From: a virus
Lineage: Duplodnaviria > Caudoviricetes
Virus record (IMG/VR): IMGVR_UViG_3300022591_000002
Length of the DNA stretch: 64,000 nt
Strand: one strand, 5' to 3'
Positions 15,093 through 49,156 of the stretch are shown piece by piece. The notes below the pieces were generated by a model that was not told the DNA's origin, did not search any database, and was given only the letters and a program-made list of their open reading frames with translations. The stretch's first letter is position 1, and each line of letters opens with the position of its first letter. The position numbers and the translations under genes were made by a program.

Positions 15093-15701
15093 ATGAGTAC
15101 TATTACTAATACAAGCAACTTAATTAACATTGATTTTCCTATCGCAGGACAGGATAACGACTCTGCTGGATTTAGAGATAACTATAATCTTATCCAAGAG
15201 AGCTTTACCACAGCGTCTGAAGAAATCAGCGACCTACAGGGAAAAGCCTTATTAGTAACTCCCCTAATTGGAACTACTAGTACTAACAATGACTTTGCTG
15301 GCGCAGTTATTAAAAACGTAGTAACACAAGGTGGTGGTGTTCAAACAGTAAACCACTTGTTACGTGCAGTCGGTGGCGCAGTAACTATTGACTACTCTGC
15401 TGGTACATATCACAAGTATTCTGTTAGTTCTGCTACAACATTTACAATTAGTTGGCCAACTAACAGCCTTAACGTGCTTAACAAGTTAACACTCGAATTG
15501 TCAAAAGACAGTACACTAACTTCAGTAAATGTAACATTTGCAACACCAGTCGGTGGCTCAATTAAAACAGATAGCAACGTAGGGGTATCATTGCCGTTGA
15601 GTATTTCACAGTCAGCACCTGCAATTTCTCTATACGAAATCTTTACAACAGACGGCGGCTTTACCAGCTACCTAAGATACCTAGGAGGTCCGTTCACATA
15701 A
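15093..15701 (+). CDS. structural protein, paralog of 15945..16886 (N-terminus)
   Basis: IDFPIAGQDNDSAGFRDNY motif shared with the downstream gene. Confidence 0.6.
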   Translation: MSTITNTSNLINIDFPIAGQDNDSAGFRDNYNLIQESFTTASEEISDLQGKALLVTPLIGTTSTNNDFAGAVIKNVVTQGGGVQTVNHLLRAVGGAVTIDYSAGTYHKYSVSSATTFTISWPTNSLNVLNKLTLELSKDSTLTSVNVTFATPVGGSIKTDSNVGVSLPLSISQSAPAISLYEIFTTDGGFTSYLRYLGGPFT

Positions 15702-18116: not shown

Positions 18117-18581
18117 ATGATTTTCAATAAAATAAAAGCACTCAAAGCGGAAGGTAAAAGAATTGGCATCACATTTAGCCAATTTGATATGTTACATGCA
18201 GGCCATATTGCCATGCTAAGTGAAGTTAAGAATCATTGCGATTACCTAATTGCAGGATTACAAAACAATGCTCAATGGGACCGTCCAGAAAAGAACGCAC
18301 CTATTCAAAGTATTGTTGAACGACAAATACAATTAAGTGCTGTTCGTTATGTAGACGAAATTGTAGTTTACAATACCGAAAAGGACTTAGAAGACATCTT
18401 GCTAACTCTACCAATTGATGTTAGAATATTAGGTGTAGAGTATAAAGAAAAAGAATTTACAGGTAAAAATATCTGTAATGCTAGAGGAATTGAAATTATT
18501 TACAACGGACGAGACCATAGTTTTAGTTCAAGCAGTCTACGTAAACGAGTAGTACAAGCGGAGAAAGAAAAGAATGGATAG
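18117..18581 (+). CDS. TagD-like (glycerol-3-phosphate) cytidylyltransferase, HIGH superfamily
   Basis: ITFSQFDMLHAGH, DYLIAGL, ER..QL.AVRYVDE, SSSSLR. Confidence 0.8.
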   Translation: MIFNKIKALKAEGKRIGITFSQFDMLHAGHIAMLSEVKNHCDYLIAGLQNNAQWDRPEKNAPIQSIVERQIQLSAVRYVDEIVVYNTEKDLEDILLTLPIDVRILGVEYKEKEFTGKNICNARGIEIIYNGRDHSFSSSSLRKRVVQAEKEKNG

Positions 18582-24513: not shown

Positions 24514-25329
24514 ATGGACTATTACAATACTTTAGGCGTCCCAAAAGACGCATCAGAATCAGATATTAAAAAGGCTTATCGCTCAAAAGCGATGAAGCAC
24601 CATCCTGACCGCGGTGGTGATCCAAAAGTGTTCCAGGATATCCAGGCCGCATACGATACACTAAGCGATCCGCAAAAACGACAGGAGTACGATAACCCAC
24701 AACCACAATATGGTAATATGGGCGGTGATCCTTTTGCAGGTCAAGGTGTTCCTCCAGGCTTTGAAGATGTGTTTAAATTCTTTGGCGGTGGTAATCCTTT
24801 CTTTAGAGCAAGTATGCCACGAAACAGAAACGTACAGTTACAGGCCGCAGTTACACTAGAAGATGCGTTCCACGGTAAAGAACTAGTAGTCAATGTTCGC
24901 TTGCCTAGCGGTAGAGAGCAAATGATCAATGTCAAAGTTCCTGCCGGTGTACAAGATGGTGTCAATTTGCGTCTAGCAGGTATGGGAGATGACAGCGTAC
25001 AAAATGCACCACGTGGTGATGTTATTGTACATATAGCAATTATTCCACATCCTAGATTTGTGCGTCAAGGTGATGATCTTATTCAAGAAATTACTATTAA
25101 CGCAATTGAAGCAATGTTAGGTAAGGATATTACTATTGACACTATTGATGGTAAACAATTTACAGGCAATATTCCAGCTGGAACACAACCAGATGCAGTA
25201 CTAGGTATAGGCGGACTGGGAATGCCAAATATGAACAACACTTCTATTAGAGGTCGTATGTTACTCAAAATAAAAATAACTGTACCTATACTTGATCTAC
25301 GTCAACGAGAATTACTGAAAGCATTATGA
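24514..25329 (+). CDS. dnaJ: DnaJ-class chaperone (J domain + C-terminal domain, no Zn finger)
   Basis: DYYNTLGV, HHPDRGGD (HPD motif), G/F-rich linker, DnaJ_C motifs. Confidence 0.92.
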   Translation: MDYYNTLGVPKDASESDIKKAYRSKAMKHHPDRGGDPKVFQDIQAAYDTLSDPQKRQEYDNPQPQYGNMGGDPFAGQGVPPGFEDVFKFFGGGNPFFRASMPRNRNVQLQAAVTLEDAFHGKELVVNVRLPSGREQMINVKVPAGVQDGVNLRLAGMGDDSVQNAPRGDVIVHIAIIPHPRFVRQGDDLIQEITINAIEAMLGKDITIDTIDGKQFTGNIPAGTQPDAVLGIGGLGMPNMNNTSIRGRMLLKIKITVPILDLRQRELLKAL

Positions 25330-25820
25330 ATATAGTTAAGTTTCCAAATGACATACTGCGCGAGCAGATGCCTGAATTTGATTTTAAAAATCCAACCGAA
25401 GATCCTGTACAATTAGAGCAGGAGATGTTACAATTAATGTACGCAATGGACGGGATTGGCCTAGCCGCTAATCAAGTTGGCAAGCGTGTTCGTATGTTTG
25501 TAATGGGCCATAGGACTAATCCAGAAGAAGGAATGGCTTTCTTTAATCCAATGGTTATAGCAAATACGGATGATGTAGATGATCTGGAAGAAGGGTGCTT
25601 GAGTTTTCCAGGGGTCTTTGTTAATATAAAAAGACCCAAAGCAATAAAGGCTCGCTGGCAAAATTCCAAAGGGGAATTTATAGAAGGCGAATTTAGCGGT
25701 TATGAATGTAAATGCTTTTTGCACGAATTAGACCACTTAGAGGGTATTGTTTTCAAAGACAGAGTAAGTACTTTAAAGTGGGCGATGAGTGTAAAGAAAG
25801 CTAAAAAGGAAAGGAAATAA
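25326..25820 (+). CDS. def: peptide deformylase
   Basis: GIGLAANQVG, EGCLSFPG, HELDHLEG. Confidence 0.95.
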   Translation: MNIVKFPNDILREQMPEFDFKNPTEDPVQLEQEMLQLMYAMDGIGLAANQVGKRVRMFVMGHRTNPEEGMAFFNPMVIANTDDVDDLEEGCLSFPGVFVNIKRPKAIKARWQNSKGEFIEGEFSGYECKCFLHELDHLEGIVFKDRVSTLKWAMSVKKAKKERK

Positions 25821-28099
25821 TGTTGGAACCAAGTCAAGACCTAGAAAAAATCTTTGAGCGAAGCGTCAAGATTGCGGCTAATCACAACCACGAATATATT
25901 ACTATTGAACACTTCTTATATAGTGTTTTGCTAGATAATAAAATAGAAAAACTACTTACCGACTTTGGTGCCGACGTAAGCGAACTAAAGGCAAACGTAG
26001 TTAAGTTTATTGACGAAGAACTAAAAGAAATTGCAGTTCCAGAACTTAAACAAAAGCCAAAGAAAACAAATTCAATGGAACGTATGTTGAATCGTGCGTT
26101 TACACAAGTATTGTTCAATGCTCGTAATATCATTGAGCCGTTAGATTGCTTTATTGCTATCTTCCAAGAAAAGAAAAGCCATGCGGCATTCTTCTTGAAG
26201 CAGGCTAAAATTGACAAAGAAAAGTTTGTTGAGTTTATTAACAACGAAGCATTGTTAACCGAAGAAGAAGAAAGTCCAGCAGATGCTAAAGCCGCACATT
26301 TAGAGCGTGTATTAGTTCAATTCTGCTCCAACCTTAACAACAAGGTTAAACAAAAGAAAATTGATCCAGTTATTGGACGTGAAAAAGAAATTGAAGAAAT
26401 TCAACTTGTTCTTGCTCGCCGTACTAAGAGCAACGTAATGATGATCGGTGACCCAGGTGTAGGTAAGACTGCTATTGCAGAAGGACTGGCACGTAACATT
26501 GTTGAAGGTAAAGTTCCTAAGTTTATTTCCGATCATACCGTTTACAACTTAGACATCTCAGCTATGCTTGCTGGTTCTAAATACCGCGGTGACTTTGAAG
26601 AACGTCTAAAAATGGTTATCACAGCACTTGAAAAGAAAAAGAACTGTATCCTGTTTATTGACGAAGCACACATGATGAGTGGTGCAGGTGCAGTTAGTGG
26701 TGGCTCTAATGACATGGCTAATATGTTAAAGCCGGCACTAGGCAAGGGTACTATTAAAGTTATTGCTTCAACTACATGGGAAGAGTTCCGTAAGCACTTT
26801 GAAAAGGATCGTGCTCTAATGCGTCGATTCCAACGTGTTACAGTTGACGAGCCTAACGAAGCAACCGCTATTAAGATCATGAAAGGTCTTAAGAAGTATT
26901 ACGAAAAACATCACGGTGTTAAGATTACTAATCAAGCTATTATTGATTCAGTTAAGTATTCTACAAAATACATTAGCGATCGTAAGTTACCAGATAAGGC
27001 TATTGACTTAATCGACTGCGCTTCTGCACGTTTTAAAGTACGTGACGAAGAAGGTGGTACTGTTGATCATGATGAAATCGTTTTTGAAGTAGCTAAGATC
27101 ACAGGCTTGCCATTAGAACAAGTTGCGGCCAAAGAAAACAAGAACCTTAAAGACCTCGAAAAGAATATGCGTGGTAAGGTTTATGGTCAAGACAAAGCTA
27201 TCGATGTATTACTTGATAAGATTTACATTAGTCAAGCAGGTCTTAAATCACTTAACAAGCCAGTTGGTAACTTCTTGTTTGTTGGCCCTACAGGTTGTGG
27301 TAAGACTGAAACGGCTAAAGCACTTGCATCAAGCATGGGTGTAGAACTTGTACGCTTTGATATGAGTGAATTCCAAGAACAGCACTCTGTAGCTAAGTTT
27401 ATTGGTGCGCCTCCGGGCTATGTTGGCTTCGATGACAACGCAGGTCAGTTGGTAACTAAACTACAAGAACATCCTAACTGTGTTCTATTGTTAGACGAAA
27501 TTGAAAAAGCACATCCTAGTGTTAGCCAAGTATTACTAGGCCTAATGGATAACGGCTTTATCACAGGTTCTAATGGTAAGAAAGCAGATGGTCGCCAAGC
27601 TATTGTTATTATGACATCAAACTTGGGTGCGGCAGATGCTGAGAAGAACGCTGTAGGTTTTGGTAGTTTAGAAAAAGACGGTGATCCTAAGGATGCTGTT
27701 AACAGTTTCTTTGCTCCAGAGTTCCGCAATCGTTTAGATGGCATTATTAAGTTTGGTAAACTTGAGCATACTACTATGGTACGTATTATCAAGAAATTTA
27801 TCGACGAACTTAACAGCCTACTCAAAGACAAGAGTGTTCATGTTAAGCCAGATACTGATGCTGTTGAATGGCTAGTTAAGAAGGGCTTCGATCGCAAGAT
27901 GGGTGCTCGTCCATTACAACGCATTATTGACGAATCTATTAAGAAACCTTTATCTAGAGAGATCCTATTTGGTCACTTGGTTAACGGTGGTATTGTAGAA
28001 TTAACTATTAAGAACAATGCTATTGATTTCAACTATGTTGATGTACTACCAGTAGCAACAGTAGAAGATAGTGTCGAAGATGCTCCTGAAGCCAACTGA
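25820..28099 (+). CDS. clpA: ClpA-like Hsp100 AAA+ ATPase
   Basis: Clp N-domain, GDPGVGKT and GPTGCGKT Walker A, two Walker B motifs, GAPPGYVG pore loop, VGF ClpP-docking loop, MGARPL. Confidence 0.92.
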
Positions 28100-28751: not shown

Positions 28752-28758
28752 ATAAATA
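28751..28758 (+). promoter_or_regulatory. late-promoter variant AATAAATA
   Basis: 19 nt upstream of ATG 28778, with GAGGA RBS between. Confidence 0.5.
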
Positions 28759-28777: not shown

Positions 28778-29236
28778 ATGCCGGCTATAAGCAAATCACT
28801 TCAATTCGATCTAACAATACTAGGTGTTACGACACAGACTCAAGTGTCTATAACAATGCCCCAGATTTATCAGGGCCAACCTACGTTTAATCGCACACTA
28901 ACATTCACTAGTAATCCAGAGCCCGGTGCTGGATACTACGGAATTCCTGCAGGATTACATACTGTGACCTATACAGTAGGTGGTGCATTCAGAGGTGAAT
29001 GTACTATGCAAGCTACTCTAGCAACAGTTCCTACAGAAGGCGACTGGTTTGATGTATATCAAACTCCTATACAGTTTGATGGAACAGAAACTACAGGTTC
29101 TACTAGCTTAGGCACCACTAGTCGCACAGTACCAACCGTTACTCGTTATGTAACATTCGTAGGCAACTTTACATACGTTAGAAGTAAAGTTGATATCAAT
29201 CAAGGTACTATGCTTGGAATAAGGTATAACTTTTAA
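28778..29236 (+). CDS. hypothetical beta-rich protein, probably structural
   Basis: Thr/Gly-rich; G..YYG...GLHTVTY motif; behind a late promoter. Confidence 0.6.
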   Translation: MPAISKSLQFDLTILGVTTQTQVSITMPQIYQGQPTFNRTLTFTSNPEPGAGYYGIPAGLHTVTYTVGGAFRGECTMQATLATVPTEGDWFDVYQTPIQFDGTETTGSTSLGTTSRTVPTVTRYVTFVGNFTYVRSKVDINQGTMLGIRYNF

Positions 29237-29237
29237 T

Positions 29238-29621
29238 ATGAAACTTTACGAATTTTTTGGCCATCAGAATTTAGACTTTTACAAAGGCTCTGAACAAGAT
29301 AACGCCCACGAAGAGAAAAAAGAACAAAATACACATATGGCAGATGACTTATTCTGGTATATAGTAGACCACGACGATCTGCATAAAAAAGATTTCTTTG
29401 AAAAAGCAGATACAATTAGAACAAAACACAAGAATGACGAAGGTCACGATCCTAAGGTTTGGGAAGATATGGTTAAGAAAGGTTGCGTAGACTTTTTCCA
29501 TCATCACAAAATGAAGGGTGACATCAAAGAACTTTTTGACAAAGATCTAAGAGATGAACTATGTCAACGCCTAGCCGATCATTATCACAAGGATATCATT
29601 GACGGCACATATAAGCTGTAA
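29238..29621 (+). CDS. probable internal head protein
   Basis: MKLYEFF N-terminal LxE motif; highly charged. Confidence 0.6.
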   Translation: MKLYEFFGHQNLDFYKGSEQDNAHEEKKEQNTHMADDLFWYIVDHDDLHKKDFFEKADTIRTKHKNDEGHDPKVWEDMVKKGCVDFFHHHKMKGDIKELFDKDLRDELCQRLADHYHKDIIDGTYKL

Positions 29622-29630
29622 GGGACCTTA

Positions 29631-32600
29631 ATGTTTCTAAATGAAATATTCAATCGTAAAGTAGTAGCAACCGTTATCGCAGAAGGCGGTAATGTTTCCT
29701 CACAAAGTCCAGGCTGGCAAGGCGTTCCCGGCGAGCACAAAGCCGACGAGATTGATCTGAAGTTACACAATCGTACATTTATGGTTGGCAAGATTGCCGA
29801 TACACTATATGCTATCAACAATGCCTATGCCAAAGCAAATGGTGCTCCGATTTGGGATCCATCATTAATTAACAAACGTGAAGCACTAAGCGGAAGTAGT
29901 ATTCAATTCTTTGACGTTGAAGGTATTTCCGATGACGACTTCCTTAATAAACTAAAGAAACAAAAAGTAGGCGACATTGACACGCAAGTTGATCAACAGA
30001 TTGGCGATCAATTACACAAATGGCTTACTAGTGTTATTGGAAAGAAGATCGGCCCTGCTACTTTCTTAGGATTTAATAGTTCATTATCTGGCCTATGGTT
30101 ATTAGATGATCCACAAGTACGTGTACAGATTGACTTTGAATTAGGTCCGTACACACAAGCAACAGATAAAGAACCTGCTAAACCAACTGAATGGTTTAAG
30201 TTTAGTCACAGTTCACATCTAGATGATTTGAGTGCAGGTATTAAAGGTGTATTCCATAAATGGATCTACCGTGCTATTCCACACGCACAAACTAGTACCA
30301 AATATGTTGCCCGTGTACTTAAGAAGAGTACAAAGATCAGTGACGAGCCAGTAACAGACAGCGACTTTAGTTTTGCAGTTACAGGCGGACAAGGTGGCGG
30401 ATTAAGTTTAAAATACAAACCTTATATCAATCCAGAAACAGGTAAGCCAGGCATGATTGGCAATCTCCCTGTTATGCAGTTATTAAGTCCAGACCAACGT
30501 GACTACGATCAGAACCTTGCAAGTCAGTTTGAAAAATTGCTTGGCAAGAAACCAACTGCACAAGATTCTGCAGGTCAACAGAGTTTTGTTGGCACTATAC
30601 AGTTACTAAACAAATACATGAACGAAGAGCAACGTGAAGAAATTGCTCAACGTTTCTTAGATTTAAACTTCTCTCCAGAAGCACAAATGATTACTGCTGG
30701 TGATCCAGTTAGAGATCGCGACACAAAGTTTGCGGCAATTGATGCTATGTTGCTTGGCGGTAATGGAGTACAACCTCTTAAGATTGCCAACGCTAAAGGA
30801 CTACGCCAACAGGCAGTTAAGATGGCTATGGAATACGAAGCCAAGTTTAACGCTAAACCTAAGAAGGCCGCAACAGAATCTTTTTTAAGAGAGGCTGACG
30901 AGCCAGAACAACCAGCTGTTAAGGCACAGCTACGTAAAGGTATGCCACACCTACGTGATTTAAAGTCAGTTGACTTTTTAGATCTACTAGACGAACTGCA
31001 TCAAGGTAACGGACAATTTAAGTTACAAAATATTCCATTGAATGTTAAGGTAGACGGCTTTGGCGGACGCTTTGGTAAGAACGCAGAAGGCAAACCTTTC
31101 ATGGGTACTAGCCGCACCGAGCCACGTTACGAAGCAGGCTTTTTAAAGTATCATCAACAAAAAGGTACCGAGGATCCAGAGATCCTAGGCCGTGCAAAAG
31201 TATTTGATGAGTTGTTTAACGAGATGATGGCCGCTGTTAAATTAGTCGACAGCAAACTAGGTCCAAAGTTTTTAGTTAATAAACAAGTTACTTGCGAAGT
31301 TCTATTCCTGCCATTTGCCACAGAAACAGATGAAGGTAAATTAAAGTTTGTTGGTATTCACTATGACAAACTACCGCAGGGTGTTCAATTAGCTTTAGTT
31401 CCATTCCGTGTGGTTGATGCAGACACAGGTGAAGACTTACCTGATAGTCAAGCATACATTAAGAAATTACTAAGTGTCGGCAAGTCAGGTAGCGTAATGT
31501 TTATTGACAACAGCCTAACACAACAAGAAGCATTAGATGTAACTGCTATGGTTCCTCCATTAGAAAACATTGAGCAGTTCAAGGCTATGTTAGCTAGTAA
31601 GAAACGTGATCAGGCCGCAGAAGTTAAAGCCGCACTTGAACCAGTTAAACTAGCATTAGAAAAAGCAATTATTAATGACCCTAACATCTTAGGTAAAGAT
31701 ATATTAGGTAAGGACTACGAAGGTATTGTTATTAACAGTCGCCTAGGTCCTATTAAAGTTACTAGCCAAGAACAGCGTGATGTTATTGCGGCTAAGAATG
31801 CGGCTAAAGCATCAGCAAGAACAGAACGTCCACGTGGTGAAAATAAAACTGCCGTAGTTGCTATTGGTAGTTTCGTTGGGCACATTGGTCACGAACAGTT
31901 ATTTGAGTACACAATTAATAAAGCAAAACAAGTAGGCGGTGATCCTTACTTGTTTATTGGTAATGCACAAGGCAAGGACGATCCTATTCCTCCAGCTGTT
32001 AAAGTACAGACATGGCATAAGATGTATCCTAACTATGCTAACCATATCAGTACTGTAACACAAGAGGGCGGAAGTTTGATGCAAAAGATCAAACACGAAT
32101 TGATCAATCCGTTGCCAGGTAAGCCTCCACGCTATGATAATATTATCATCATGGTGGGAGAAGATCAAGCCAACATGCCCATTGCAGGCGCACTGATGAA
32201 AGCGGTTAACAAGTTTCAAGGGTACGAACACGTTAAAGTTACATTAGAAGCTACACCACGCGGTACTGGCATGAGCTTTACTAAGTTGCGCAATATTTTA
32301 AAAGATCCTAATGCTACTCCAGAACAACAGTTAAAAGTTTGGTGTCAAGGATTTGATGTTAAGAAATTAGGTGCCGAATGGATTAAACATCTAATGGACT
32401 TAACTCGCAAAGGTATGGGCATTGCCCCGACACACGTAAGTCCAAGTGGTGCTAAGACTAATATGAGTCCAAAAGATGACGACTACGCAATTAACTATGG
32501 AAAAAATGGTATGGCCGCACAAGATAAACAAGAACAACCTATGTCTGAAAGTAAACAGCCATTAGGTAGACTATTCAACGAAATCATTGGTGTTGCTAGT

Positions 32601-32948
32601 CCTGTCACAGAAGCTATGCTACCTAAGAAAGCATTTGCAGGTGCGGACAAGAACAAACTAGGCACAGCAGGACAAGCACGTGGAGAACCTAAGAAAAGTC
32701 AAAAGGCTCCACTAAAAGGTCTAATGGTAGGCGAAGATGGTGTTGAAGAAGCCGCTATTGCTATTGCTAAAAAGAAAAAGAAAGATGTTAAAGAAGTAAA
32801 GCAACGCCTTGATCCAAAGTGCTGGAAAGGTTATCGCAAAGCTGGTACAAAGATGAAAGGCGGCAAGCGTGTTAATAACTGTGTCCCAGTTAGCGAAGAC
32901 GTTGAAAGCGTAATGGGTAGTTTGATTGCTATCCTAGAATCAAAATGA
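29631..32948 (+). CDS. multidomain nucleotidyltransferase: Pol-beta-type NTase + ligase-like (KxDG) domain + HIGH-family NTase + CWxGY tail
   Basis: SGSS...GDID...QID; NVKVDG...YEGIVI; GSFVGHIGHE...VGED...SFTKLR; C-terminal CWKGYRKAGTKMKGGKRVNNCVP. Confidence 0.7.
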   Translation: MFLNEIFNRKVVATVIAEGGNVSSQSPGWQGVPGEHKADEIDLKLHNRTFMVGKIADTLYAINNAYAKANGAPIWDPSLINKREALSGSSIQFFDVEGISDDDFLNKLKKQKVGDIDTQVDQQIGDQLHKWLTSVIGKKIGPATFLGFNSSLSGLWLLDDPQVRVQIDFELGPYTQATDKEPAKPTEWFKFSHSSHLDDLSAGIKGVFHKWIYRAIPHAQTSTKYVARVLKKSTKISDEPVTDSDFSFAVTGGQGGGLSLKYKPYINPETGKPGMIGNLPVMQLLSPDQRDYDQNLASQFEKLLGKKPTAQDSAGQQSFVGTIQLLNKYMNEEQREEIAQRFLDLNFSPEAQMITAGDPVRDRDTKFAAIDAMLLGGNGVQPLKIANAKGLRQQAVKMAMEYEAKFNAKPKKAATESFLREADEPEQPAVKAQLRKGMPHLRDLKSVDFLDLLDELHQGNGQFKLQNIPLNVKVDGFGGRFGKNAEGKPFMGTSRTEPRYEAGFLKYHQQKGTEDPEILGRAKVFDELFNEMMAAVKLVDSKLGPKFLVNKQVTCEVLFLPFATETDEGKLKFVGIHYDKLPQGVQLALVPFRVVDADTGEDLPDSQAYIKKLLSVGKSGSVMFIDNSLTQQEALDVTAMVPPLENIEQFKAMLASKKRDQAAEVKAALEPVKLALEKAIINDPNILGKDILGKDYEGIVINSRLGPIKVTSQEQRDVIAAKNAAKASARTERPRGENKTAVVAIGSFVGHIGHEQLFEYTINKAKQVGGDPYLFIGNAQGKDDPIPPAVKVQTWHKMYPNYANHISTVTQEGGSLMQKIKHELINPLPGKPPRYDNIIIMVGEDQANMPIAGALMKAVNKFQGYEHVKVTLEATPRGTGMSFTKLRNILKDPNATPEQQLKVWCQGFDVKKLGAEWIKHLMDLTRKGMGIAPTHVSPSGAKTNMSPKDDDYAINYGKNGMAAQDKQEQPMSESKQPLGRLFNEIIGVASPVTEAMLPKKAFAGADKNKLGTAGQARGEPKKSQKAPLKGLMVGEDGVEEAAIAIAKKKKKDVKEVKQRLDPKCWKGYRKAGTKMKGGKRVNNCVPVSEDVESVMGSLIAILESK

Positions 32949-33247
32949 AACAGTTTAAGATAACCACAGAACACTTAAATACAGATAGTCCAGATGACGC
33001 CTACCTTGCGCCAGATGATCCTATACACGAATTAAAAATTGTACAGTATCTAGCAGGGTTAGGGTCAGAAGCTAGATTACAAGAATACAGAATAAAAACA
33101 GCCGAGCAACAAGGTGGTAGTAATATAACAAAGACTGCTAACGAAAATGCTCGGATTATGCGTGAACAAAACATTAAACCCGGAACACCAGAGTGGTTCA
33201 AGTTATGGTTTAGTTTACCGTACTTAACAGGCGAAAAGAAAGAATGA
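32945..33247 (+). CDS. hypothetical protein
   Basis: 100-aa ORF with ATGA coupling; IKPGTPEWFKLWF motif. Confidence 0.65.
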   Translation: MKQFKITTEHLNTDSPDDAYLAPDDPIHELKIVQYLAGLGSEARLQEYRIKTAEQQGGSNITKTANENARIMREQNIKPGTPEWFKLWFSLPYLTGEKKE

Positions 33248-33621
33248 GAGCAAACGAATTTATCAATGAAGGCAAAAATAAAATGCCTGACTCTGCTACA
33301 CAAGGAATTCCTGGCGCACATCGCTGGGATCAATTAGATAACTCTAGCCCGTATCACGCATATCGCTTTGGTGTAGCTCTTGCAGGCATGCCTGACTATC
33401 CTATGAACTTAGAAGGCCCAGTTGGACAAAAGACTGTAACAATTGGTTACACAGAAGCCGACGATGAAATTATTAAAGCAACTGGCAAGCACTTAGGATT
33501 CCAAGGTCTTGTACTAACACCGCGTGGTAGTAAAGAATTATCAGACACTGATACAAAGAGTCCAGTAGCAGATTGGCGTAAGAATGATACGGAAAAAGCC
33601 AAGGTTGCAAAAAAGAAATAA
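33244..33621 (+). CDS. probable internal head protein
   Basis: MRANEFINEG N-terminus; PYHAYRFGVALAG motif. Confidence 0.65.
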   Translation: MRANEFINEGKNKMPDSATQGIPGAHRWDQLDNSSPYHAYRFGVALAGMPDYPMNLEGPVGQKTVTIGYTEADDEIIKATGKHLGFQGLVLTPRGSKELSDTDTKSPVADWRKNDTEKAKVAKKK

Positions 33622-33633
33622 AGATGTTATAAT
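33605..33633 (+). promoter_or_regulatory. sigma70-type promoter with extended -10
   Basis: TTGCAA-17nt-TATAAT, preceded by TGn. Confidence 0.7.
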
Positions 33634-33639
33634 ACTAAC

Positions 33640-34494
33640 ATGAAAAAAGATGAATTTGCACAAGGAGTAGGAAATACAGCTTTCCAAGTTGGAAAAGCCC
33701 TATCTCAATCTAAACAAGCACCAGTTAAGTCAGGCGGATCCAGTGCGCCTAAAATTTATCTAGATATGGACGGAGTGCTTGCAGACTTCTTTACTGAATA
33801 TGCTAAACTTGCTGGAATTACTAACGGCAACTATAGAGATATTCCTCCAGCAAAAACAGATCCAACATTAAACAAAATGGTAGGCACAGACTTCTTTGCT
33901 CGCTTACCAGAATGTCGCAATGCACAGCAAGTAGTAGAGATGGCATTAGAATTTGCTAAATCGCATGGTGCCAAGGGGTATTGCATTTGCTCTAGCCCCC
34001 TACGTGGCGATCATCAAAACTCAGAAGTACAAAAAAGAATTTGGATTCAGAAACATCTAAACCCGCAACCTACTGAAATTATTATTGCGGCTGACAAATC
34101 AAAGTACGCTGTACAACAAGACGGTACTCCTAATATCTTAATTGATGACAGGGGCAGTAATATCAGCGGTTGGGAAGCTAAGGGCGGAATTGGTATTAAA
34201 TACCAAGCAGATGAAAACGGCTTAGATGTTATCGTTAACGGCCTAAGTCGTGCTAACAAGATCTTAAAAGGTCAAGAAAAGCACAAACCCCAACAGATGG
34301 TTAGTAAAGATCGCAGTATGCCTGTAGCAACACAAAAAGATCATCCAACCAGTGCGGCTGACGTTAAAGAAGCCGCAACTGGAGGTAGTACTAGTGTTGG
34401 TTCTGGAGTTGGCGGTGGTGCCGCTGTGCCTGTAGTTGTAGGCGGCAAAGGCAAGAAAGCAAAAGTTATAAGACGAGCAAGCATAGTAGTCTAA
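33640..34494 (+). CDS. HAD-superfamily 5'(3')-deoxyribonucleotidase-like phosphatase
   Basis: IYLDMDGVLADF, SSP, K..W, ILIDDR...W...GGIGI. Confidence 0.82.
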   Translation: MKKDEFAQGVGNTAFQVGKALSQSKQAPVKSGGSSAPKIYLDMDGVLADFFTEYAKLAGITNGNYRDIPPAKTDPTLNKMVGTDFFARLPECRNAQQVVEMALEFAKSHGAKGYCICSSPLRGDHQNSEVQKRIWIQKHLNPQPTEIIIAADKSKYAVQQDGTPNILIDDRGSNISGWEAKGGIGIKYQADENGLDVIVNGLSRANKILKGQEKHKPQQMVSKDRSMPVATQKDHPTSAADVKEAATGGSTSVGSGVGGGAAVPVVVGGKGKKAKVIRRASIVV

Positions 34495-34503
34495 GGAACG
34501 GTT

Positions 34504-35277
34504 ATGATCAACGAACACAAAAAAGGCGTCAAAGCCGTAAAATATACAAAAAAAGCCAAAGGTATAGAACCAATGAAGCCACGCAACTTTGTTGCAAAGA
34601 ATGCCGTTAATACTGGTGCAGGCGCACATACTGATAAAAAGAAAGCCGCAAAGCAAGGCATAACAAAACACAAAAAGAGTTATGCTGAAGCATTAGAAGC
34701 TGAATTGAAACAGTTAAGCGAACTAAAAGATACTACAAAAGCCAGTTACAAAGAAAAAGCACAAGCTCAAGTTAAAGAATTAGAGCCACACGCTAAAAAC
34801 GGTGAGTATAAAGATATTGCCCAACGTGCGATTGACCGCCGTAAAAAAGGTTTAGCAAAAGTTAAAGAAAGCTGGACACACGATACATTAGCCGCAGAAT
34901 TATTTGAAACTCCGTCATACGAAACTCGTCTACAAGAAATGTTAGAAGGTGCAGTTGCGTTTATGGAAGGTGGTACTGATGATGGTGTTACAATGTTTTC
35001 AAAGAGCCCAGGTAGTCATCAACATTTAAACGATGCAAGTGACGACCATAAATCAAGAGAAAAAGACCTAGAGGGCGATACTGTTAAGAATAGTTTGCAC
35101 ACTATTGTTCGTGTAGCTACTCATTTAGAAAAAGCAGTAACTGATGACGAAGAATTTCCAGAATGGGTTTCAGAAAAGATTGGTGCTATCAAAAGCATGA
35201 TGGTAAGTGTTATGGACTATGTTATTAGTTCGCATGAACAACAAGACGGAGATCGATTAGATCACGGGCCTAAATAA
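34504..35277 (+). CDS. probable internal head protein (composite of short motifs)
   Basis: MINE N-terminus, PRNFVAKN..GAGAH, LSELKDTTKASYKEKA repeat-type motif, EWVSEKI motif. Confidence 0.65.
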   Translation: MINEHKKGVKAVKYTKKAKGIEPMKPRNFVAKNAVNTGAGAHTDKKKAAKQGITKHKKSYAEALEAELKQLSELKDTTKASYKEKAQAQVKELEPHAKNGEYKDIAQRAIDRRKKGLAKVKESWTHDTLAAELFETPSYETRLQEMLEGAVAFMEGGTDDGVTMFSKSPGSHQHLNDASDDHKSREKDLEGDTVKNSLHTIVRVATHLEKAVTDDEEFPEWVSEKIGAIKSMMVSVMDYVISSHEQQDGDRLDHGPK

Positions 35278-48402: not shown

Positions 48403-48758
48403 CACAATTAAAAGGCTTAGTTCCAAAAGGCTGGGGTTCAGAATTTATCTGGGCCACTAATGACAAGTACTGCGGCAAGTTTATGAACTTCAACGCAGGT
48501 GCAAAATTTAGTATGCACTTCCATAAAGATAAAGAAGAAACTTGGTATATACAATCAGGTAAATTTATTATCCGCTGGATTGATACTAACAACGCAGAGG
48601 TTTACGAGAAAGAAGTTAGTGATGGTACCGTATGGCATAACCCCCCGTGCATGCCACATCAAATCGAATGTATCGAAGCAGGTACTGTTATTGAAGTTTC
48701 TACTCCAGATTCAGTAGAAGACAATTATCGTGTAGGCAAGGGCGATAGTCAAAAATGA
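48399..48758 (+). CDS. cupin (mannose-6-phosphate-isomerase-like)
   Basis: KGWGSE, SMHFH..KEETW, PHQIE, EVST.DS.ED.YR. Confidence 0.75.
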   Translation: MTQLKGLVPKGWGSEFIWATNDKYCGKFMNFNAGAKFSMHFHKDKEETWYIQSGKFIIRWIDTNNAEVYEKEVSDGTVWHNPPCMPHQIECIEAGTVIEVSTPDSVEDNYRVGKGDSQK

Positions 48759-49156
48759 CAAAGGTAATTGTTAATGGAACTTTTGATATACTACATCGCG
48801 GCCATTTGGAACTACTTGACTACGCTAAAAGTTGTGGCGGGTATTTGCTTGTGGCTATTGACACAGATCGCCGTGTAAAAGAATTAAAAGGCGACAGTCG
48901 TCCTATTATTAGTCAGTATGATCGTAAGTATCATTTAGAAATGCTTAAACCAGTCGATGAAGTTAGACTGTTTGATAGCAAAGAAGAACTTGTAGAAATT
49001 ATTAAGAATTATAATCCAGACATTATGGTCAAGGGCAGTGATTACAAAGGCCGTAGTGTAGTTGGAGCAACATACGTACCAGAGGTAATTTATTTTGAAC
49101 GACTCGGCGAATACTCAACAACCAAAACAATTGAACATATTACTGCTAGGGGATGA
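48755..49156 (+). CDS. HldE C-terminal (RfaE-II)/TagD-like nucleotidyltransferase
   Basis: VNGTFDILHRGH, ELKG..RPI, VKGSDY, YSTT. Confidence 0.82.
   Translation: MTKVIVNGTFDILHRGHLELLDYAKSCGGYLLVAIDTDRRVKELKGDSRPIISQYDRKYHLEMLKPVDEVRLFDSKEELVEIIKNYNPDIMVKGSDYKGRSVVGATYVPEVIYFERLGEYSTTKTIEHITARG

Follow-up and report, generated by a model that had tools for sequence, protein, structure and literature searches.

The stretch of 64,000 nucleotides (nt) analysed here as a whole, called the window, comes from the viral record IMGVR_UViG_3300022591_000002 (Caudoviricetes) and carries on its + strand an uninterrupted reading frame, 29631-32948, for a polyprotein of 1105 amino acids (aa). Three unrelated nucleotidyl-transfer domains, D1, D2 and D3, follow each other in this single open reading frame (ORF). 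In our judgement the chances are about even that the product is a capsid-targeted cargo polyprotein which is cut and injected, most likely for the repair of nucleic-acid ends; we infer packaging, cleavage, injection and all enzymatic substrates. Coordinates are window positions throughout, and residue numbers refer to the 1105 aa polyprotein (P0001). The features of the polyprotein gene are the following.

29631..29684, + strand: leader, residues 1-18 (MFLNEIFNRKVVATVIAE), a probable capsid-targeting leader with a predicted prohead-protease cut after E18.
29685..30893, + strand: D1, residues 19-421, Pol-beta-fold nucleotidyltransferase with a predicted product of 44.5 kDa.
29892-29897 (GS, residues 88-89), 29973-29981 (DID; GDID is residues 114-117) and 30126-30140 (QIDFE; QID is residues 166-168), + strand: D1 motifs.
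30885..30893, + strand: predicted D1/D2 cleavage site L419-R420-E421, followed by A422.
30894..31835, + strand: D2, residues 422-735, RNA-ligase-like covalent nucleotidyltransferase with no OB domain after it.
31047-31058 (motif I, KVDG, with K473), 31296-31298 (motif III, E556), 31719-31724 (motif IV, EG) and 31755-31763 (motif V, K709-x-T), + strand: D2 motifs.
31836..32435, + strand: D3, residues 736-935, HIGH-superfamily (HxGH) nucleotidyltransferase, predicted to remain joined to D2.
31881-31892 (HIGH; GHIGH is residues 750-754) and 32274-32291 (SFTKLR, residues 882-887), + strand: D3 motifs, with VGED at residues 842-845.
32436..32948, + strand: C-terminal tail, residues 936-1105, with 8 hydrophobic-x-Glu sites in 170 aa bounding small basic modules.
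Within the tail, + strand: modules AMLPKKAFAG..., AAIAIAKKKKK and, at 32796-32897, a two-Cys module VKQRLDPKCWKGY...NNCVP.

The initial annotation of this region, made from the letters of the DNA, had described one polypeptide with three unrelated nucleotidyl-transfer enzymes, and this description stands. The motifs are invariant, the folds of D1 and D2 are confident, and D3 is assigned from its sequence motifs. All strings quoted in that annotation are present in the polyprotein, namely GS, GDID, QID, KKAATESFLREADEPE (411-426), NVKVDG (471-476), YEGIVI (696-701), GHIGH, VGED and SFTKLR.

A word-indexed protein search gave 695 relatives of the polyprotein with lengths of 607-1934 aa, among which residues ~1-930 are conserved at 56-83% identity while the C-termini are variable. 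An exhaustive search gave 1,869 metagenomic cluster representatives at E <= 0.001, and relatives of the family reach cultured phages of Campylobacter, Vibrio, Xanthomonas and Stenotrophomonas as well as cyanophages. Two-domain relatives (D1+D2 and D2+D3) were present in the exhaustive search together with stand-alone forms of D1 (in proteins of ~350-390 aa), D2 (~285-350 aa) and D3 (~250 aa). Since each domain is also found alone, the polyprotein is a fusion of three separable units, and the gene or domain order D1, D2, D3 is constant across the relatives. The residues G88, S89, D115, D117, D168, E170, K473, D475, G476, E556, E697, G698, K709, H751, G753, H754 and R887 show no variation across 17-38 diverse homologs; therefore the motifs are not due to chance.

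Some homologs carry extra C-terminal modules, which are lysozyme plus LysM, sigma-70 region 4, or DUF6321, and additions of this kind are typical of delivered cargo. An extra N-terminal module of ~125 aa with the string HELVHAKQ (HExxH-like) was also seen in the homologs P0006, P0075 and P0093, ahead of an [IV]-x-E/GGN site (here and below, a slash within a sequence marks the predicted cut). This module could be a metalloprotease-like cargo unit.

The leader ends with I-A-E directly before an invariant GGN and has a predicted local distance difference test score (pLDDT) of 54-56 in the D1 model. Among 189 D1-bearing homologs, those with Glu at the site and with upstream sequence were counted as scorable, and in 171 of these 171 [LIVMF]-x-E stands immediately before GGN (146 with a leader of at most 35 aa, 25 with D1 behind another module). 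The start of Campylobacter phage CP220 gp100, MKLSELMFILE/GGN, is an example. Leaderless D1 homologs start with M-GGN, which was found in 14 sequences plus the cultured phages BUDD, Ps15 and phiKT1024. After removal of Met this is the same mature end, a coincidence which is hard to explain without cutting at the leader site. Stand-alone D2 proteins start either with a leader of the type MKTFKQFLSE/G or directly at the first conserved D2 motif.

The same motif was counted at the two inner borders. At the D1/D2 border, [LIVMF]-x-E occurs within the 22 aa before the first conserved D2 motif in 142 of 144 fused homologs, where the background in random 22 aa windows is 27%. The D2/D3 linker (~34 aa) has a cut motif in 3 of 193 homologs and none in the other 190, against a background of 38%, so that D2 and D3 are predicted to stay joined. 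The Glu-motif linkers that the initial annotation placed between all parts thus hold for the N-terminus, the D1/D2 border and the C-terminal tail, and fail between D2 and D3. From these motifs the predicted products are the leader (1-18), D1, a fused D2-D3 protein of 61-63 kDa, and basic tail peptides of 1.6-4.2 kDa.

In T4 the capsid-targeting sequence (CTS) is MKTYQEFIAE (PMC8442874). Targeting to the capsid resides in its first 10 residues, processing depends on positions 8 and 10, and cleavage by the prohead protease is after Glu (PMC9026906, PMC5694885). A prohead protease of the Peptidase_S77 family (T4 gp21 family, 88 bits) was found on one of four related fragmentary contigs, and that contig also carries a homolog of the polyprotein.

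The polyprotein gene is part of an operon which has a probable promoter at its head.

28778-35277, + strand: operon, with gene gaps of at most 18 nt or overlaps.
28752..28758, + strand: ATAAATA, probable T4-type late promoter core, 26 nt upstream of the ORF at 28778; we infer the promoter role.

ATAAATA occurs 7 times on the + strand of the window (1881, 2543, 15070, 21770, 28752, 54853 and 58271), and six of the seven copies sit 8-31 nt upstream of a start codon, one of them preceding the fibre gene at 15093. Judged by this placement, ATAAATA is probably the late-promoter core of the source phage. The positional pattern holds only for the shorter ATAAATA; the window shows no enrichment of the exact T4 late promoter TATAAATA, of which no copy lies near the polyprotein gene. 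Taken together, the T4-type leader, the conserved hydrophobic-x-Glu sites, the probable late promoter and the prohead protease of a relative make the polyprotein probably virion-delivered. The earlier proposal of a virion-delivered polyprotein is probable to this extent, with the exception that no cut site separates D2 from D3.

D1 was compared by motif, profile and structure. Among 38 sequences with identities down to ~30%, G88-S89, G114-D115-x-D117 and Q166-x-D168-x-E170 do not vary. This is the arrangement of Pol-beta enzymes (hG[GS], a DxD pair in the strand that follows, and the third acidic residue further along in another strand), with a GS-to-DxD spacing of 25 residues that is longer than usual. 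The AlphaFold 2 (AF2) model of D1 has a pLDDT of 91.3. VIA-align, which is independent of Foldseek, gave Pol-beta-fold nucleotidyltransferases in all of rows 1-23 (Z 5.5-6.9), with TUT7 and OAS2 at the top (Z 6.9), Pol beta at Z 6.5 over 179 aa, and TdT, GLD-2, Trf4 and Pol mu also among the top rows. Foldseek returned weak rows (E 0.06 or worse) in which Pol lambda, poly(A) polymerases and ANT(2'') were over-represented. With 38 members and E <= 1 there was no meaningful match in Pfam and none in NCBIfam. In particular, none of the 38 sequences matched RlaP (PF10127) or the CCA-adding family models, and the 'CCA-type' label given to D1 in the initial annotation is not retained. A search of the D1 profile against PDB sequences gave no significant match, and neither did a single-sequence search with the polyprotein. 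On the evidence of its model and motifs, D1 represents an uncatalogued family of Pol-beta-fold nucleotidyltransferases.

For D2 the invariant residues in 20 sequences, including stand-alone forms at ~30% identity, are K473-x-D475-G476, R480, E556, E697-G698 and K709-x-T711. These are the ligase motifs I, III, IV and V in the correct order, as expected of a covalent nucleotidyltransferase. The AF2 model has a pLDDT of 90.2, and each of the first 50 Foldseek matches in PDB is an ATP-dependent RNA or DNA ligase (best E 1.5e-4; probability 0.51-1.0, and at least 0.97 in the top 27). Likewise, the top 45 of VIA-align all have the ligase/capping nucleotidyltransferase fold. The best was NgrRnl (5cot) with Z 11.3 (root mean square deviation 3.3, 188 aa), followed by REL1 and T4 Rnl2 with Z 9.5, DNA ligases with Z <= 9.0 and capping enzymes at about Z 7. 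Structure prediction had been named in the initial annotation as a check, and the D1 and D2 models do match Pol-beta nucleotidyltransferases and ATP-dependent ligases, respectively.

An OB-fold is absent after D2; the model ends in a long helix (model residues 288-307), which is followed by a short linker and the HxGH domain. None of the 20 sequences matched Pfam RNA_ligase (PF09414) or RNA_lig_T4_1 (PF09511) at E <= 1, NCBIfam gave no family, and the D2 profile, run against the sequences in PDB, had no match with an E of 0.37 or lower. The ESM Atlas has viral DUF6267 clusters onto which D2 can be superposed with a template modelling score (TM) of 0.65-0.69, some of these being fused to CTP_transf_like, and RNA_ligase clusters (TM 0.50/0.72) fit better than DNA ligase clusters (0.44/0.49). 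As modelled, D2 is RNA-ligase-like at the level of fold and motifs and lies outside every named ligase family.

D3 has H751-I-G-H754 and S882-x-T884-x-x-R887, and within the domain G15, H16, G18, H19 and R152 do not vary among 17 sequences. HxGH after the first strand and an ISSTxxR-like motif towards the C-terminus are what defines the HIGH superfamily, and by these motifs D3 is an HxGH/SxTxxR nucleotidyltransferase. It matches phrog_3041 ('cytidyltransferase') with E 6.9e-15, and the D3 family profile matches the HxGH region of the RibF FMN-adenylyltransferase with E 4e-4. Matches to FAD_syn reach 14.6-16.8 bits, under the cut-off of 27; such weak matches were obtained in 16 of 17 members with a best E of 4.3e-5. 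Among 100 feature matches in the ESM Atlas, 84 are CTP_transf_like viral clusters. Two more small HxGH-type nucleotidyltransferase genes were seen in the window, at 18117-18581 (FDMLHAGH...SSSSLRKR) and 48755-49156 (GTFDILHRGH). By eye they resemble the sugar-nucleotide or glycerol-phosphate cytidylyltransferase type; they are unrelated to the D3 family.

The tail would be cut into peptides of 1.6-4.2 kDa with an isoelectric point of ~10. Its modules are also found elsewhere, where they stand alone, behind other cargo, or behind a CTS-led HxGH enzyme (P0243, P0258 and P0260). The PHROG matches in the tail cover residues 1043-1089.

In some relatives the domains are encoded by separate genes. 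The metagenome contig L028 has D1 (MIQHLLE/GGN), D2 (MLTFSQFRQRLDE/T) and D3 (no leader) as neighbouring genes in the order D1-D2-D3. Xanthomonas phage BUDD and Stenotrophomonas phage Ps15 have the order D1, an extra gene, D2 and a CTP_transf_like enzyme (28.7 and 41.9 bits, above the cut-off). The BUDD protein between D1 and D2, called X, has no Pfam family and no counterpart in the window. The HxGH enzymes beside the D2 homologs of Ps15 and BUDD are CTP_transf_like proteins with GRFQPxHxGH, and the Ps15 copy is annotated as nicotinamide mononucleotide adenylyltransferase (NMNAT). This NadM-like motif is present only in these separate-gene partners, whereas D3 itself carries GSFVGHIGH. Comparison of the D3 profile with the BUDD and Ps15 HxGH proteins by hhalign aligned the correct motifs and was not significant (E 0.013-0.029).

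Small proteins encoded downstream of the D1-X-D2-HxGH operon in BUDD (L020:9392-9808) and Ps15 (gp151, L023:6428-6874) start with K-x-R-H-x-MPQ(L/I)...F..DL. This start resembles the first conserved D2 segment (RKGMPHLRDLKSVDFLDLLDEL), and a shared N-terminal module is possible. The BUDD protein has a DGHHR motif which by eye looks ParB-like.

Cyanophages provide a further set of relatives. In cyanophage S-H9-1 (gp144-gp145, L025:2275-4061) a DUF6267 gene (269 bits, KWDG) overlaps a D3-resembling CTP_transf_like 'cytidyltransferase'. The comparisons by hhalign of D2 with cyanophage DUF6267 (E 0.49) and of D1 with S-H9-1 gp143 were not significant. DUF6267 is probably an unrecognised ligase-type nucleotidyltransferase family, common in T4-like cyanophages, as suggested by the superposition of the models. 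In Synechococcus phage S-SSM7 the 'cytidyltransferase' gp194 (L024:3129-4511) starts with (V)KSFGQFLTE/A, a near copy of the T4 CTS, which is followed by a low-complexity linker and the enzyme domain; members of this family are found in 560 phage records. A study of T4-like cyanophages reports a cytidylyltransferase in the virion proteome and adds that enzymes of this kind are often found in cyanophage virions; the authors regard the protein as an NMNAT homolog (PMC10665884).

The mechanism that we favour would proceed as follows. The polyprotein would be transcribed late, and the 18-residue leader would carry it into the prohead core. There it would be cleaved behind its hydrophobic-x-Glu motifs by a prohead protease of the T4 gp21 type, giving free D1 with a Gly-Gly-Asn N-terminus, a two-domain D2-D3 enzyme with Lys473 as AMP acceptor, and several basic peptides. 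The enzymes would enter the cell with the DNA and could act ahead of any phage gene expression. Pol-beta nucleotidyltransferases occur together with RNA ligases in RNA repair, where damaged RNA 3' ends receive 1-2 nucleotides from RlaP before they are ligated (PMC7824862, PMC12776372). D1 would extend 3' ends with nucleotides, in the role that RlaP has next to RNA ligases. D2 would close breaks with 3'-OH and 5'-phosphate through ligase-AMP and an adenylylated 5' end, and D3 would transfer a nucleotide to a phosphate-bearing acceptor. RNA ends are our best guess for the substrate, by analogy with these systems.

Several observations weigh against this mechanism. The D1 gene of BUDD, Ps15 and phiKT1024 lacks a leader, which means that the pathway can do without packaging, and the homologs are mutually related, which makes the motif counts non-independent events. 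Neither a polynucleotide kinase nor a cyclic phosphodiesterase was seen close to the polyprotein gene, and the repair of typical ribotoxin cuts needs such enzymes; with no kinase seen nearby, a complete tRNA-repair kit is not supported. We know of no RNA-repair system that uses an HxGH enzyme. Finally, the structural matches of D1 are moderate (Z < 7), and the longer alignments are those with family X DNA polymerases. This last point fits a kit for DNA repair of the injected genome, in which D1 would act as a gap-filling or terminal polymerase resembling family X and D2 as a ligase for nicks. They would mend nicks and gaps acquired by the virion DNA in the environment, or programmed nicks, right after injection. 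The pair of Pol X and ligase in African swine fever virus (ASFV) is an analogue. Pol beta, TdT, Pol mu, Pol lambda and ASFV Pol X give the longest D1 alignments (156-183 aa, Z 6.0-6.5) where RNA-specific TUTases align over ~95-110 aa, family-X polymerases are among the D1 rows of the ESM Atlas, and DNA ligases are strong matches of D2 (Z 8-9). However, the best D2 matches are RNA ligases (Z 11.3, 9.5 and 9.5), RNA_ligase clusters of the Atlas also fit D2 better than DNA ligase clusters (TM 0.50/0.72 versus 0.44/0.49), D2 lacks the OB-fold and the DNA-binding domain that DNA ligases require, and D3 would be left without a role. We regard DNA repair as unlikely, although it deserves some weight.

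The HxGH partners of Ps15 and BUDD, with GRFQPxHxGH and with NMNAT as the annotation in Ps15, suggest instead a cofactor or signalling toolkit. D3 would be an NMN/FMN-type adenylyltransferase rebuilding NAD+ or a similar cofactor, and D1 would make or modify a nucleotide signal or AMPylate a host protein, so as to blunt NAD-depleting or cyclic-nucleotide defences. The virion-associated cyanophage cytidylyltransferase seen as an NMNAT homolog (PMC10665884) is consistent with this, as are cGAS/CD-NTase and OAS among the structural matches of D1 (Z 5.5-6.9). Yet D3 stays below every family cut-off with weak FAD_syn matches as its best, an NMNAT by itself is unable to rebuild NAD+ from NADase products, and neither the catalytically intact ligase motifs nor the conserved D2-D3 fusion would have a role. 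We consider such a toolkit rather unlikely, although it too deserves some weight. An ordinary cytoplasmic multi-enzyme protein, neither packaged nor cut and with the leader and Glu motifs being structural or otherwise used, seems to us very doubtful. The leaderless D1 genes of BUDD, Ps15 and phiKT1024 and the position of the gene between DnaJ/ClpB chaperones and DNA polymerase, away from head genes, are what one would expect of it. But the cut motif is kept at one position in 171 of 171 homologs while the remaining leader varies, leaderless forms begin precisely at the predicted mature end, and the site frequencies at D1/D2 and D2/D3 deviate from background in opposite directions. Furthermore, some homologs carry lysozyme/LysM cargo, and the leaders closely resemble the T4 CTS.

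A more specific variant of injected end repair concerns the pair of ligase-like and HxGH enzymes (D2-D3, or DUF6267 plus cytidylyltransferase). This constant pair might be a two-step enzyme of a new kind that builds or repairs a pyrophosphate-linked nucleotide cap or another RNA or DNA end, as an injected early counter-defence of T4-like phages of freshwater and marine hosts, with D1 preparing the 3' end. We offer this as a conjecture with a rather low probability.

The closest models for the cargo route are the internal proteins of T4, the textbook example of proteins that enter the cell along with phage DNA. To our knowledge few cargo enzymes of T4-type internal proteins have been described, Alt being the main one. 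IPI-III and Alt have a short N-terminal leader of the MKTYQEFIAE type ending with hydrophobic-x-Glu, as the polyprotein does. Further shared features are Peptidase_S77 in the lineage (on one related contig), probable late expression, cargo that varies among relatives, and enzyme delivery with the DNA, which for the polyprotein would follow from the predicted packaging. Unlike IPI-III and Alt, the polyprotein has several cargo units in one gene with internal cut sites, and its cargo would be three nucleotidyltransferases where theirs is a restriction inhibitor or an ADP-ribosyltransferase. Polyvalent or ejection proteins (cited in PMC7824862) are likewise multi-enzyme proteins with modular gain and loss of domains, co-delivered with the genome for early host conflict. 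Here, in contrast, the T4 core/CTS route with proteolytic dicing would be used, and the set of domains is another.

On the enzymatic side, the RlaP (PF10127) plus Rnl modules of bacteria and jumbo phages link a Pol-beta nucleotidyltransferase to an ATP-dependent RNA-ligase-type enzyme, as here, and sometimes have a HAD phosphatase near (PMC7824862, PMC12776372). The polyprotein differs from them in that D1 does not match PF10127, D2 does not match a Pfam ligase, and no kinase or 2H/cyclic phosphodiesterase was seen nearby, while the HxGH enzyme, absent from known RNA-repair systems, is a constant third partner. D2 shares the motif order I (KxDG), III, IV (EG), V (K) with its best structural matches NgrRnl/DraRnl (Rnl5 family), T4 Rnl2 and Trypanosoma REL1. 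Compared with NgrRnl, Rnl2 and REL1, it has an identity of 9-13% and two helical insertions; it has no counterpart of the OB-like domain at the N-terminus of NgrRnl or of the domain that ends Rnl2, and is followed by the HxGH domain instead. The pairs of DUF6267 (PF19782) and CTP_transf_like in cyanophages have the KWDG motif, the structural resemblance to D2 (TM 0.65-0.69) and an adjacent or fused HxGH enzyme. A sequence link to D2 was not detected (hhalign E 0.49). As no function has been described for DUF6267, the pairs add a relative and not a mechanism. The literature search returned no description of the three-domain fusion and none of DUF6267/PF19782.

The window region was compared with 50,697 cultured phage records by megablast and gave zero matches. 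The window genes include a T4-type family B DNA polymerase, a clamp-loader gene, a ClpB-like ATPase and giant fibre genes, and the source is an uncultured, novel, T4-like giant/jumbo phage. The polyprotein gene is flanked by chaperone genes (DnaJ, ClpB) on one side and DNA polymerase on the other, outside the head genes. Genes for DnaJ, peptide deformylase and a ClpB-like double-AAA+ chaperone lie consecutively at 24514-28099, immediately upstream of the polyprotein gene, and this block adjoins the polyprotein gene in every related locus examined. Several small genes of the operon 28778-35277 have T4 CTS-like starts, such as the one at 29238 (MKLYEFF...) and the one at 33244 (MRANEFINE/GKN). 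Judged by these starts, the operon may be an array of capsid-internal proteins.

A further gene of the operon had been drawn into the initial annotation.

33640..34494, + strand: HAD gene encoding an NT5C-type 5'(3')-deoxyribonucleotidase-like protein of 284 aa with a DMDGV motif, 692 nt downstream of the polyprotein gene in the same operon.

The presence of a HAD nucleotidase ~0.7 kb downstream was correctly noted there. The protein, with DMDGV, matches phrog_2643 (5'-3' deoxyribonucleotidase family) with E 1.5e-20, and Pfam NT5C with 21.3 bits, below the cut-off of 24.8 bits. A homolog is present in one of six distinct related loci spanning the polyprotein gene to DNA polymerase, and the HAD gene is an operon neighbour and not a conserved partner. 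NT5C-type nucleotidases act on mononucleotides. The suggested role as an end-healing phosphatase, resembling T4 Pnkp, was dropped because the protein matches the mononucleotidase type NT5C and its gene is not a constant neighbour of the polyprotein gene.

The analysis gives a testable fold-level assignment to D1 and to DUF6267/D2, which are uncatalogued or 'DUF' families, and it predicts a specific processing map in which D1 is set free and D2-D3 stay joined. If packaging of the polyprotein is real, many T4-like phages of aquatic habitats would bring finished nucleic-acid enzymes into the cell at infection, when host RNases and nucleases act.

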